Positions 3,289 through 51,645 of a DNA stretch of 64,000 bases are shown piece by piece; position 1 is the first letter of the stretch, and each line of letters begins with the position of its first letter. The DNA comes from Eledone cirrhosa (lineage: Eukaryota), in contig OZ024743.1 of the NCBI GenBank assembly GCA_964016885.1, forward strand, positions 330,708,001 to 330,772,000. Reading direction: 5' to 3'. The translations under genes were made by a program, and so were the position numbers. The notes under the pieces were generated by a model. It did no database searches and was not told the origin of the DNA. It saw only the letters and a list, made by a program, of their open reading frames with translations.

Positions 3289-3510
3289 GCTGTGGAGCAT
3301 GAGGTAAGCAAGAAAGTAAATGTTGGTAAAATCCAGTACTTCAGTATGCGGATAGGGAGCACTCAACGAAGATATAAGTTCCGGAGTTATAATACTGATG
3401 AAACATAAGTCAATTGCATGAACTCATAATCCTTTATTTACTGCTATATATATTTCGATGATGGCCATTGAGTGGCTATGACCTCATTAGGCAGTTAGTC
3501 AGTTCTTAAG
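3289..3510 (-). repeat. Inverted family-2 pLTR end (hammerhead plus long tail)
   Basis: ~3395-3508 is the reverse complement of 6431-6542; the extra ~105 nt tail contains GAGTGCT (3358-3364, minus). Confidence 0.85.
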
Positions 3511-3551
3511 CAATAACCGGCGGACCGCAGCCAAATAATTTTGACATTACA

Positions 3552-5243
3552 ATGGGCTCCAGTGACTCCGCGCAGCTAACGGACTTGGTTGGGATATACA
3601 TACTCTACGAGATCAGGAGAGAAATACCCAACCTGGGTGGCGGGCTGTACCGAGACGACGCACGCTTCACCGTAGTGGACCACAGCACCACAATGGTCGA
3701 AAATTTGAAGAGGAGAATTAGGCACTTCTTTAGCAAGGTAGGACTTAAAGTAGAGATAGAACCCAATAGAAAAGTAGTGAATTTCCTGGACACCACCCTC
3801 AACCTCAACACCAAGCTACACCACCCATATCATAAACCCAATGAGAAGCTGGTGTATATCAACGCTGGGTCCAATCACCCTAGATCTATAGTTAAGGCCG
3901 TAGTTAAGAGTGTCTCTGACAGGATCTCTAACTTGTCGGCCAATAAAGAGATCTTCAATAGTAACGCTGATTACTATAACTCAGCGCTAGCCAAGGCGTC
4001 CCACAGCCATAGGATCAGCTACAACCCTAAGGGACATTATCGAGATGACCCAAGGGTACGCCGGACCAATACCCTCAGGAGCATGAGTCGCCCACCTAAT
4101 ACCTCGGTGACCGGTAATAACACTCCCAGACCCCTATCCGTCACCACCCCCGGTAGAAGGTCCCGCATACCCCACCGGCCTAATACCTACAACGCTGAAG
4201 ACCACTGTTCTGCGGAGCATAGGCACCCCTGTACCGGCCCCACCACCTGCCGAACCCTAATAGAGCAGGGAGGCCGCACCTCGCAGGTTTATAGCCCCAC
4301 GGGGGGCCCATATAACCCTCATGATAGTGACCGCTCCGCGCACCTGAGTGACACCAACCGAGTTCTACCTGAGCTGTGCACAACCACGCGGTTGCCCACG
4401 GCGGACATCCAACAACCCCGCAAGAATAGGACCAGGAAGGTCACATGGTATAACCTTCCGTACTCGGTGGGTATACGTACCAGCTTGGCTAGAACATTCT
4501 TTAGAGTACTGGATAAATGTTTCCCTAGGGCCCTCAAGTACCATAAAATATTCAACAGGCACACGGTGAAACTTTCCTACTCAACCACACGCTCCGTAGC
4601 CCAGCACATAGCTGGCATAAATAGGAATAGACTCACTGCCTCTAATACCACCGTAAACCCCGGAGCCACCCAACAGAACCAGCACGCGGGACGCACCGGA
4701 ACCCGGACAGGCCCAACAAGCACACCGGAACCCAACGACACTGTGCTGATTGCGGTGGCTACCCAGCCAACCCCGAGTGATGGTAACCACGCGGTACATG
4801 TGGTGGGGCTTAAGAAGTCATGTAATTGCAGAGATCCATCACTATGCCCCCTTAGTAATGAATGCATGACGAAAAACGTAGTCTACAGGTGCAAGGTCAC
4901 AATCCCTAACTCGGAGCACCACTACATAGGATCCACAGCGACGAGATTCAAAGATCGGTGGTATAACCATCGCCATACCTTTAACAGAACAGATAAGAAG
5001 AAATGTACGGCCCTTTCTGAATTGATCTGGAAGCTCAAACTTGAAAAGACCCCGCACTCTCTGGTCTTGTCCGTGGTTAGAAAGGTTCCCCCAGACAGAG
5101 GCGGGTCTGGTATTTGCAACCTCTGTCTTAGTGAGACACTCGAGATACTTCATGTCGGAACCAAGCTATTAGACAGAAGGGCCGACTTATTCGGTGCCTG
5201 CAGACACCTAAGGATGGGAACTTTCCTCAAGCTATATGGATAA
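3552..5243 (+). CDS. 5'-truncated PLE family 2 ORF: RT C-half, long linkers, GIY-YIG
   Basis: FDITMGSSDSA, GLYRDD, VNFLDTTLNL, SNHP, VTWYN.P, CNCR...CPL..C, VVY..YIG, CNLC..E. Confidence 0.92.
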   Translation: MGSSDSAQLTDLVGIYILYEIRREIPNLGGGLYRDDARFTVVDHSTTMVENLKRRIRHFFSKVGLKVEIEPNRKVVNFLDTTLNLNTKLHHPYHKPNEKLVYINAGSNHPRSIVKAVVKSVSDRISNLSANKEIFNSNADYYNSALAKASHSHRISYNPKGHYRDDPRVRRTNTLRSMSRPPNTSVTGNNTPRPLSVTTPGRRSRIPHRPNTYNAEDHCSAEHRHPCTGPTTCRTLIEQGGRTSQVYSPTGGPYNPHDSDRSAHLSDTNRVLPELCTTTRLPTADIQQPRKNRTRKVTWYNLPYSVGIRTSLARTFFRVLDKCFPRALKYHKIFNRHTVKLSYSTTRSVAQHIAGINRNRLTASNTTVNPGATQQNQHAGRTGTRTGPTSTPEPNDTVLIAVATQPTPSDGNHAVHVVGLKKSCNCRDPSLCPLSNECMTKNVVYRCKVTIPNSEHHYIGSTATRFKDRWYNHRHTFNRTDKKKCTALSELIWKLKLEKTPHSLVLSVVRKVPPDRGGSGICNLCLSETLEILHVGTKLLDRRADLFGACRHLRMGTFLKLYG

Positions 5244-48498: not shown

Positions 48499-50144
48499 AT
48501 GTATATATATATACATATATATACATATATATACATATATACATATATATACATATATACATATATATGTATATATACATATATATACATATATACATAT
48601 ATATACATATATACATATATATGCATATATACATATATATACATATATACATATATATGTATATATATACATATATACATATATATGTATATATATATAT
48701 ACATATATATATATATACATATATACACATATATACATATATACATATATATATATATACATATATATATACATATATATCTATAATATATATACATATA
48801 TATGTATATATATATACATATATATATATATACATATATATACATATACATATATATATACATATATACACATATATACATATATACATATATATATATA
48901 TACATATATATATACATATATATCTATATATATATACATATATATGTATATATATATATACATATATATATATATAAATATATATACATATACATATATA
49001 TATATATACATATATATACATATACATATATATGTATATATATATACATATATATACATATACATATATACATATATATATATATATACATATATACATA
49101 TATATACATATGTATATATATACATATATATACATATATATATATACATATATATGTACATATATATATATACACATATATATATATACACATATATATA
49201 CATATATATATATATATACATATATATATATATACATATATATATACATATATATATATATACATATATATATATATACATCTATATATATATATATATA
49301 TATATATATACATATATATATATATATACATATATATATACATATATATATATACATATATATATATATATATATATATACATATATATATATATACATA
49401 TATATAAACATATATATATATACATATATATATATATATACATATATATATATATACATATATATATATACATATATATATATACATATATATATACATA
49501 AAATATATATATACATATATATACATATATATATATATATATACATATATACATATACATATATATATACATATACATATATATATATACATATACATAT
49601 ATATATACATATACATATACATATACATATATATACATATATATATATATATATATACATATACATATATATACATATATATATATATATATATACATAT
49701 ACATACATATATATATATATATACATATATATACATATATATATATATACATATATATATATGTATACATATATATATATGTATACATATATACATATAT
49801 ATATATATACATATATATATATATATATATATACATATATATATATATATACATATATACATATATATATATATATACATATATATATATATATATACAT
49901 ATATACATATATACATATATATATAAATATATACATATATATATATACAAATATATATATATATACATATATATATATACATATATATATATATATACAT
50001 ATATATATATACATATATATATATATACATATATATATATATACATATATATATATATATATATACATATATACATATATATATATATATACATATATAT
50101 ATATACATATATACATATATACATATATATATATAGATATATAT

Positions 50145-51645
50145 AGTATTAGTTATACTATTTATGGTTATGTAAATACAAAACCTTAAGCAGTTGTAAG
50201 TATTTTACACACACCCTAAATAGTGGTAGGCAGTATTGTATTACTACCTTATTACCAGTAAGTTAAGTAGCTCAATGTAAAAACATCAGATGATTTACAG
50301 AGCAGTTATATGAAATATAAGAATCAAAGAACTGTTCAAAACATTATTGTGCTTACAGCTGTTTCCTCCAAACCGAGGTTTGGATTCTTCGGAGCAATTT
50401 ATTAATGCATGGACAGTTATATGACCTCCTTTTCAGCCGAGAGACATACCAATACATATTCAAACATTGATACATATTCAAATATTGTGGGTCAACATTC
50501 ATTACAGAATTTAGAGTGGCAGTACACACTTCGAGATTACATTTATATTAATAGGTACAATCAAAAATCAAAGATATAGGTTAAAATACAACATGAAGAT
50601 AAGCGGTTATATAGTGCAAATGTTATATGTGTGGCACGCATGTGCGTCTTGTTTATATAGTGTGGCAGAGAGATATGTGTGGTAGAGGCACTTAGGTAGG
50701 TAAATAAGAGTGTTAGGTTGGTAGATCTGGTGGCAAATTCTTTATATGATTGATATAGTCTGTGTGTGGAGAAATATTATAAGCATTAAAGATAGTGCAA
50801 GCATTAAAAGTGTTATAAGTAATGGAGATGCACAGCGCAGGGATGTCAAGTATTTCATGTACTTCGGCATTTTCATGGTCAGGGGAGTATATTTTTCGAT
50901 TATATGCCCTTCACATAATCCACGGCAATCCAGTTAGAGATCGTAGTCTGGTGTTCTTTAGTTCGATACAGGAGGTTGTTACGTTTCTAGAAACGCCATT
51001 GAATACCGCCCGGAAGTGTGTGTGTGGCTAAGGGGAGTTAATGCATGCGGGGAGGTAACTCTGGGGTTTCTGTATCTAGCCATTAAAATGTGTCCCAATA
51101 TAGACCCTAAATTCTATGGTGATGCGCATCTTCCAAGAGAGATTTTTAAAGCATAAAGTGTATTAACTATAGAGTAGTTTAATTAAGTTATGCTGAAGGT
51201 GATCATATTATTATTATGGTGGATTAACCCATCTTAAGGTGCCACAAATGGAAATTATAGATGATGAGCGAGGATTCTAAATTAATGATCTCTGTGGTTG
51301 TAGTCTGCTCATATGACCAGGCGCGGTGATTGCAGGCTTGCTTCAGGACCCGATGATCTCTGGTAAGATCTGGGTCATCGCTTGCTACATTTGATGTCGA
51401 AAGATAATTATCCCCTGGCCGGCCAAAGGTCAATCCGCAGTCCACGCGACCCCTCTCTGACCGTCAGATCATCCATATACGTACAACCCGCACGGCAGTT
51501 GGAATGCATTCACCCACTGCGCTCAGCAGTCCGGTCCTACTGGTCAACAGCGCTACTCGATTAAATCATTTTACATCCGTCTAAGGAAGGTGTTTCCTCT
51601 GCACAACACTATCCAACCGATCAATTCATGCTCAAATTACCCTTA
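50145..51645 (-). mobile_element. 3' UTR/pLTR of a family-7-related PLE, long-tail end, cut by the gap
   Basis: 51010-51060 matches the reverse complement of 31862-31914; hammerhead at 50350-50396 tgct-CCGAAGA-..-GAAA-cagctg-TA-agca. Confidence 0.8.

Follow-up and report, generated by a model that had tools for sequence, protein, structure and literature searches.

The 64,000-nucleotide (nt) stretch of the Eledone cirrhosa genome analysed here (assembly GCA_964016885.1, contig OZ024743.1, positions 330,708,001 to 330,772,000 of the forward strand; hereafter the window) is dense in TA repeats and in retroelements with reverse transcriptase (RT) and C-terminal GIY-YIG domains, which we place by their motifs among the Penelope-like retrotransposons (PLEs), mostly in the Hydra clade; the host genome measures 3.0 Gb. 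Where such an element was inserted as two inverted arms with outward-facing 3' ends, one arm stops at a short 3' end and the other runs on through a tail to a long 3' end, and this long/short rule for two-armed insertions is real: pairs of two long or two short ends are nearly wanting, and the two start sites are therefore not chosen independently. The reading that we favour, with a probability of roughly 0.55, is that a single RNA would present two start sites, each marked by a stem and each serving one strand of the target. The scarcity of like pairs is in any case a hard constraint on models of PLE insertion.

Pairs were counted in 98 10-kb stretches at set coordinates (10 of them adjoining the window), in the flanks of loci retrieved for other families and in core-selected loci; arms were scored by BLAST at an identity of at least 80%, and pairs were called unbiased if chosen without regard to the tail, the window's own copies being left out. 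Among 93 candidate pairs, 82 were long+short (3 called by reading), 2 were long+long, none was short+short and 9 were unscored (6 cut at a locus edge, 2 with a divergent partner and 1 judged separate), so that 82 of the 84 scored unbiased pairs combined a long with a short end (binomial p ~2e-22 against independent choice). (TA)3 adjoined both ends in 70 of these 82, and the set-coordinate stretches alone gave 29 long+short pairs, 1 long+long and 0 short+short. To these were added 8 long+short pairs of family 10, 4 long+short wide pairs (3 verified by inverted repeats of 465-899 nt at 97-99% and 1 read across two overlapping loci), and 3 long+short pairs and 1 short+short pair read by eye in a sister family of family 2. 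The total thus came to 97 long+short, 2 long+long and 1 short+short among 100 unbiased pairs, where independent choice predicts 50 unlike pairs. Sets selected by their tails gave 30, 16 and 14 long+short pairs (60 altogether) against 2 long+long. All pair counts, those of short+short pairs included, describe samples of the genome. Core queries for families 3, 4 and 8 returned nothing, as the search skips very common words; consequently family 4 has one unbiased pair (across L062/L063, outside the tallies) and family 8 has two.

An earlier note on this DNA, made from the letters of the window, had proposed that each insertion has one short and one long end. That claim was too broad, since one-armed insertions are common and the rule is limited to two-armed ones. 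In the 980 kb of set-coordinate stretches, 34 candidate pairs stood beside 36 unpaired arms, of which about 9 are plainly one-armed with TA or CA repeats behind them, while the rest have a partner that is divergent or out of view. One-armed insertions are commonest in family 2, where, of 29 copies selected by their core, 28 stop at the short end and 1 continues through it, and no inverted partner is visible for any of them. Some seeming solos (L027, L050, L008, L141) nevertheless carry a short arm of 7-25 nt. The family 2 loci L032-L060 are mostly solo units of ~170 nt that share a 5' start at a TA microhomology and resemble short interspersed nuclear elements, and the depth of contigs over the family 2 core is tens of times that over the tail.

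In eight families the two 3' ends are fixed points, 40-166 nt apart. For family 3, 28 of 30 tail-selected loci share one long point and the other 2 lie within 7 nt of it, their partners stopping at the short point; for family 4, 24 of 30 tail-selected loci stop at the long point and 6 read through. Families 6, 7, 9 and 10, each represented by 30 loci picked by sequence upstream of both ends (window copy included), have ends spaced by 94, 166, 96 and 40 nt, respectively, with few exceptions, which deviate by some bases, and single read-through copies; the spacing in family 8, for which few copies were available, is 45 nt. Family 2 gave the impression of a single end and no inversions, but that view was abandoned when a shorter query revealed both a long end and inverted pairs: the impression had come from ranking bias, as the query extended beyond the true end. 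The fixed long end lies at +86-88 relative to the short end (window 3305-3307) in 23 of 25 loci, which were chosen as absent from the first list or as matching only the first 88-100 nt; they comprise 5 partial matches from the long query and 20 of the 40 matches of the shorter query, and the latter, selected as previously unfetched, are thereby enriched for early ends. An inverted partner accompanies 16 of the loci that end there, and all of these partners are short. Thus neither continuous end positions nor like pairs as common as unlike ones were found, and the earlier note's proposal of two fixed start positions, one per target strand, was supported by discrete ends in eight families, a share of like pairs of ~3% and signs that the arms were primed separately. 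The symmetric cut of the (TA)n target that the same note supposed is conjectural, target duplications being illegible within TA runs.

The insertions in the window, with the open reading frames (ORFs), pseudo-long terminal repeats (pLTRs), 3' untranslated regions (UTRs), predicted stems and predicted hammerhead cores that belong to them, are as follows.

2484-3288, plus strand: family 2 direct 3'-UTR copy, stopping 112 nt short of the short end (92.6% to 5640-6433)
3289-3508, minus strand: family 2 inverted read-through piece (-115 to +104), with the inversion junction at 3289
3305-3307, minus strand: true long end of family 2, where 23 of 25 loci stop, read through in this copy
3361-3387, minus strand: family 2 first bulged stem, 7 nt past the short end
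3510-6547, plus strand: family 2 5'-truncated PLE (RT fragment, CxCX5C linker, GIY-YIG, 3' UTR, hammerhead core at 6448)
9326-9531: family 3 mini-element, short end left and long end right
9762-9960: family 3 mini-element, long end left and short end right
10643-11010, minus strand: family 3 long arm (-290 to +81)
11012-14740, plus strand: family 3 pLTR-ORF-pLTR, open frame 11188-13560, short end at 14740
11173-11196, plus strand: family 3 first bulged stem (ACTC/GAGT), 8 nt past the short site
11251-11272, plus strand: family 3 second bulged stem (GCTC/GAGC), 7 nt past the long site
15049-15234, minus strand: family 4 short arm (99.5% to 21020-21205)
15235-21340, plus strand: family 4 ORF fragment, 3' UTR, hammerhead core at 21007, first stem at 21210-21290 and long end
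29602-29872, minus strand: family 6 long arm, hammerhead core at 29792, first stem at 29667-29687
29882-30047, plus strand: family 6 short arm
30240-32633, plus strand: separate insertion of a family 7 relative, its short end pointing right
34351-39240, plus strand: family 8 Neptune-type PLE, partial tandem with a long end, without an inverted arm
39574-40061, minus strand: family 9 long arm, TA joined at its 5' side
41067-41267: family 3 mini-element, short end left and long end right
45945-45980, minus strand: second family 9 long terminus, 36 nt, closest to the ORF
46055-48498, plus strand: family 9 ORF fragment, 3' UTR, hammerhead core at 48396 and short end
50146-51645, minus strand: family 7 copy, long end facing left, extending to an assembly gap
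61009-61172, minus strand: piece of a family 7 relative that consists of the tail alone, spanning short to long site (79.7% to 50146-50311)
61289-64000: family 10 two-armed insertion, short end at 61289 and junction near 63180

Several of the pairs named in the earlier note were confirmed as single long+short insertions facing outward into TA: the full element of family 3 (long 10643, short 14740), family 4 (short 15049, long 21340) and family 6 (long 29602, short 30047). The three family 3 mini-elements do reuse the same two end points, each with one long and one short end; the long-end sequence given for the family, ccttcgtta, is that of the mini-elements, whereas the copy at 10643 reads cattcgtta. 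These mini-elements were also considered as miniature inverted-repeat transposable elements or Tc1-mariner derivatives, which was rejected since a fixed tail makes the two ends unequal and both correspond to the 3' end of an RT-coding element. Family 10, absent from the earlier list, supplied a further long+short insertion, whose long end lies 858 nt beyond the right edge of the window (L061) and whose arms are 98.9% identical over 820 nt. The placing of the family 2 long end at 3289 did not hold, as 26 of 29 other copies (query 3289-3392) continue into the ORF; instead, 3289-3508 is an inverted piece set between the direct copy that ends at 3288 and the ORF fragment, and the short end of the 3510-6547 copy runs into (TA)26. 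In contigs from three runs of one study, family 2 sequence continues in its usual way at 3288 and at 3508, and ends in TA are seen at 3392. Nor do the family 7 ends at 32633 (facing right) and 50146 (facing left) form a pair, since they point at each other and are 67% identical and therefore belong to two separate insertions. The family 9 pair 39574/48498 is long+short under either pairing, but the true partner of 48498 is ambiguous because the 39574 arm runs into TA on its 5' side and another long terminus is situated nearer the ORF; 39240-39610 is 86% like 45600-45990, and a local duplication may thus have copied the long terminus. A relative of family 3 at 7378-7563 reads through both stems and stops ~45 nt beyond the long site with TA on both sides, a third end point seen in a single copy.

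The claim that the ends stop at TA microhomology stood: all 14 ends for which the read-through sequence is known continue in that sequence with TA/AT over 2-7 nt (background 0.12-0.33 per position), and every short site bears a TA patch. In L380 (517-697), a long arm of family 2 is interrupted precisely at its short site by another repeat, which makes the TA patch itself a target. Beyond the TA overlap, the ends appear to be marked by a predicted stem of the form RCTC, a paired upper stem of variable sequence, a 2-nt 3' bulge and GAGY. A first such stem opens the tails of families 2, 3, 4, 6, 7 and 9 and of the sister family, beginning 7-8 nt past the short end, or 14 nt in family 9 and 12 nt in the sister family when counted from the start of their longer TA patches. 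The upper parts of the first stems differ among families yet still pair, with one A-U to G-C swap; the exact form occurs in 0-0.3% of shuffles and any 4-base-pair (bp) form in 11-69%, the motif having been defined from the same tails. A second stem lies 7-8 nt past the long end in families 3, 4, 7 and 9 (RCTC alone by chance 0.02-0.06 each), and in family 2 a second stem at +94 foretold an end at about +86-87 before the loci that end at +86-88 were read. Twin stems 7-8 nt after both ends are thus predicted in five families (2, 3, 4, 7 and 9). Some of the stem pairs are G-U, which would let the stems work on the sense RNA only. The tails fold mildly better than shuffles (z -0.9 to -2.8).

By contrast with this register, the earlier note's suggestion that the ends might be tabulated against the hammerhead cleavage site yielded no fixed distance, and such a rule was rejected: short ends fall at +17 to +123 from the predicted cut and long ends at +96 to +208. 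For families 2, 3, 4, 6, 7, 8 and 9 a pattern scan predicted hammerhead-like folds that lie upstream of both ends, with variant cores in families 3 and 7 (in family 3 the CTGAGAAG variant, at 11062 and 14635); for family 10 it found none. An Rfam search gave no hammerhead among the 150 of 309 matches listed, which were spurious microRNA matches on TA runs only. Stem II inserts as long as 116 nt, or else variant cores (CTGAGAAG, CCGAAGA), mark the folds at 21007-21142, 14635-14720 and 50354-50392.

In the mechanism that we favour, a two-subunit RT-endonuclease would bind both stems of a single RNA and nick both strands of a TA repeat, and each target 3'-OH would pair with the UA patch 5' of one stem, so that each site would be used once. 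Reverse transcription begun at the long site would copy the tail, meet the first hybrid of RNA and complementary DNA (cDNA), and displace it or stall; the two same-sense cDNAs would be joined head-to-head via microhomology or filler. Priming on a single strand, or capture of a cDNA end by the other TA end, would leave a one-armed or tail-only copy. We place at even odds the more specific proposal that this is a twin cis-signal of the Hydra clade, in which two bulged RNA stems would load two RT subunits on one RNA and make paired priming obligate. If true, paired priming would account by a single mechanism for the tail, for its presence on one side and for the head-to-head inversions that PLEs show. 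Since the twin stems form a short, mutable signal that foretold an unseen end, they are testable, and developers of RNA-templated insertion tools might take an interest in an RT that starts from a defined RNA signal and writes into both strands of a break. The biochemistry published for an anole PLE, with two RT start sites and extension of both strands, matches the two-start idea (PMC11167929).

The relation between the arms indicates separate primings from a shared source. In 104 pairs compared (5 complex pairs were skipped), the 5' end of the short arm lay more than 20 nt beyond that of the long arm in 35 and the reverse held in 15, while the long arm stopped within the tail in 12; a short arm that outreaches the long arm is not a fold-back copy of it. 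Arm-to-arm identity exceeded identity to other copies in family 3 (0.952 vs 0.887, p 5e-5) and in family 4 (p 9e-4), and in some pairs the arms are 99-100% alike yet 77-90% like the window copy. Outside family 3, the 5' stop points of the two arms coincide in 12 pairs against 6.6 expected from shuffled pairs. Stops of the long arm at or just past the short site amount to 4.8 per 1000 nt at risk, compared with 1.5 in the tail and 3.5 upstream (p 0.013), and 5 of 16 long arms in the new family 2 pairs stop there. Preferred arm stops lie at about -60 in family 3, -200 in family 4 and -170 in families 2 and 6. In L027 (1455-1500) an arm of 8-10 nt is written twice, a repeated start at the short site, and in L040 (1823-1940) a piece of hammerhead stem III is repeated threefold; both are signs of abortive priming or template slips.

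These data bear on four other explanations. Self-priming, as discussed in PMC3846280, would have a single cDNA snap back and be copied until the copy stops at the short site. It would account for near-identical arms and for the frequency of palindromic, nearly symmetric junctions (in 34 of 75 unbiased pairs the 5' ends lie no more than 20 nt apart), but the short arm should then lie inside the long arm, which it exceeds by more than 20 nt in 32 of the 75, and 11 of the 75 long arms stop in the tail and hold no template for a short arm. We regard this origin as very improbable and reject it in pure form for these pairs, although a few of the rare like pairs, L156 or L143 for instance, might yet have arisen in this way. 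Improbable too, if somewhat less so, is priming at two pLTRs of one RNA, one strand at the 3' pLTR and the other within the 5' pLTR in the manner of L1 twin priming. Partial tandems are indeed common and the preferred arm stops (~-60, -170 and -200) resemble an RNA 5' end; the ORF, however, is often on the long arm (family 4 in the window; L010, L239), both arms can pass the pLTR by more than 1 kb (L374, L375), and a source copy with a long end should yield long+long pairs, which are rare.

Trimming, whereby both arms would start at the long site and the endonuclease would cut one tail back at the internal TA patch (the resolution of PMC8557442), draws on the TA patch at every short site, on tail-only pieces between TA runs (window 61009-61172 and L239) and on the finding that PLE endonucleases cut their own pLTR region (PMC11167929). 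We nevertheless judge it quite unlikely, for trimming would have to occur exactly once in 97% of events, both ends stand in equal register to the same stem form, the G-U pairs imply a function in sense RNA, and the anole enzyme begins at both sites in vitro (PMC11167929). A separate RNA molecule for each strand, in a complex that is asymmetric or works stepwise and in which the first priming forces the second RNA to the other site, is unlikely but has points in its favour: kilobase overlaps between arms would need no strand displacement (the arms of L374 share 2.2 kb at 98.8%), and the arms of the long+long second pair of L023 differ in sequence, so two-template events do happen. Such a model needs an extra source of asymmetry, leaves arms of shared subfamily to be explained although many subfamilies coexist, and does not predict stalling of the long arm near the short site.

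The single-RNA reading has its own difficulties, and the following points weigh against it. Arm identity indicates a common source and nothing further, and the sequences would fit one RNA or two RNAs of the same locus equally well; the identity test is weak in family 7 (p 0.02) and family 9 (p 0.06), and the own partner is the strict best match in only 3 of 39 family 3 pairs. Coinciding 5' stops do not prove one RNA, because joining at palindromic microhomologies gives the same result. Stops at the short site are only modestly in excess; the zones compared were set after the data had been viewed, and the excess is missing in family 3 alone (p 0.2-0.3). With respect to the signal, in family 9 a TA patch of 9 nt begins 14 nt before the first stem, which makes the register less sharp; the upper part of the second stem has only 1-2 bp in families 2, 7 and 9, and in families 7 and 9 this stem was read from one read-through copy each; none of the 30 tail-selected copies of family 6 reads through, leaving the second stem unreadable there. 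Families 8 and 10 lack a bulged stem in their tails, which are AC-rich and 40-45 nt long, yet keep the long+short pairing, and RNA folding did not place the two start sites near each other. The anole start sites, moreover, are not homologous to the cut DNA and are the same on both strands (PMC11167929). Finally, five like pairs are known (L156, L239, L030, the second pair of L023 and L143), of which that in L239 is a palindrome made of two tail-only pieces.

Twin priming of L1 likewise has both target strands prime and inverts the 5' part of the insert; there, the two cDNAs cover non-overlapping RNA and the second site is unfixed, whereas both E. cirrhosa arms are copies of one region, begun at fixed sites that are separated by 40-166 nt. 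Among PLEs, the Pen2a type of Adineta vaga, with an inverted pLTR and a one-sided tail (PMC3846280; PMC8557442, fig. 2), has the same head-to-head inverted 5'-truncated copy, tandem pLTRs, tail on one inverted end and hammerheads in the pLTR. The tails described in the literature have a length of 30-40 nt and count as optional or as "often at one end", a one-sidedness attributed to endonuclease resolution (PMC8557442), while those of E. cirrhosa measure 79-166 nt in six families and 40-45 nt in two, with like pairs at ~3%. The anole element Poseidon PAc shares two internal RT start sites that bound the tail, the cutting and extension of both strands and an AT-rich target, and a dimer was predicted for it with the later steps left unvalidated (PMC11167929). 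PAc, however, starts in an AC-rich stem-loop unlike the cut DNA, and the main text of that paper does not pair the two sites in one insertion, although its supplementary figures S1-S2 may hold such pairing in genomic copies; in E. cirrhosa all 14 readable ends share 2-7 nt with the TA target, and those of Hydra type appear to lie 7-8 nt before twin stems. The Hydra clade as set out in section 11 of PMC8557442 agrees in its C-terminal GIY-YIG, RW(R), DKT, CxCX5C, CxxC + CxH, hammerheads and (TA)n targets; that section gives no start signal, twin stem or tail pairing, and stem II inserts of up to 116 nt depart from its account. A one-sided tail and two RT start sites are thus known in outline (PMC3846280, PMC8557442, PMC11167929), which limits the surprise, and PMC8557442 names the origin of inverted copies and of the one-sided tail as open. 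What is added here is the near-strict exclusion of like pairs, the long tails, the TA microhomology and the predicted twin stems; our literature search, which did not cover older papers on Penelope tails, turned up no published tally of like versus unlike pairs and no description of twin stems.

The assignment to endonuclease-bearing PLEs follows from RT together with a C-terminal GIY-YIG in a single ORF, pLTRs as partial tandem or inverted repeats, a tail at one of two inverted ends (97 of 100 unbiased pairs) and hammerhead motifs predicted in the pLTR by the pattern scan. Pfam matched RVT_1 and GIY-YIG in families 5, 8 and 10 and GIY-YIG alone in family 2 and the family 7 relative, several scores lying under the curated cut-off; the Pfam search of the window gave no match for families 3, 4 and 9, whose RT and GIY-YIG motifs were recognised in the translations, and family 6 has no ORF inside the window. 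By the clade-defining motifs of PMC8557442 (section 11), families 2, 3, 4 and 9 are probably Hydra-type and families 1 and 7 partly so: RWR and DKT occur in families 3 and 4, RWR in family 2 and WR with DKT in family 1; the CxCX5C linker is present in families 2, 4 and 9 and lacks its third C in the family 3 copy; and CCHH is absent, with CxxC + CxH ending the endonuclease. Families 5 and 8 are probably Neptune-type, having the CX2-5CxxC linker and CCHH and, in family 8, DKG. Family 10 was left unplaced by its motifs. The Naiad/Chlamys class was rejected, as the endonuclease is C-terminal rather than N-terminal and hammerheads are predicted.

Other features of these loci were recorded alongside the pairs. 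Tail-only pieces between TA runs occur in the window (61009-61172), in L102 (~1675-1715) and in L239 (1974-2810), where two of them flank a 676-nt palindromic TA/TAC expansion. Family 4 also forms head-to-tail arrays with identical tails 6-7 kb apart (e.g. C1:125835751-125848674), which indicates very recent activity; it is the youngest of the families, with 100% identity in all 40 of the 40 tail matches listed. Kilobase TA/TAC expansions adjoin the family 9 and family 3 ends in the window (39240-41500, 44359-46054 and 48489-50145), and nested between the two family 9 pieces on the minus strand (41510-44358) is a decayed RT element after (CAT)n, which from reading by eye we take to resemble a long interspersed nuclear element. 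A small tandem element with a hammerhead-like core at 7085 occupies 6600-7240, with TA on both sides. A repeat of ~190 nt is present in a dozen copies (16607-16800, 25349-25808, 52197-56003, 59592-59792), often adjoining TA runs, one copy sitting within the family 4 3' UTR, and at 21609-22348 a perfect 104-nt palindrome is followed by 14 units of a 45-nt repeat.

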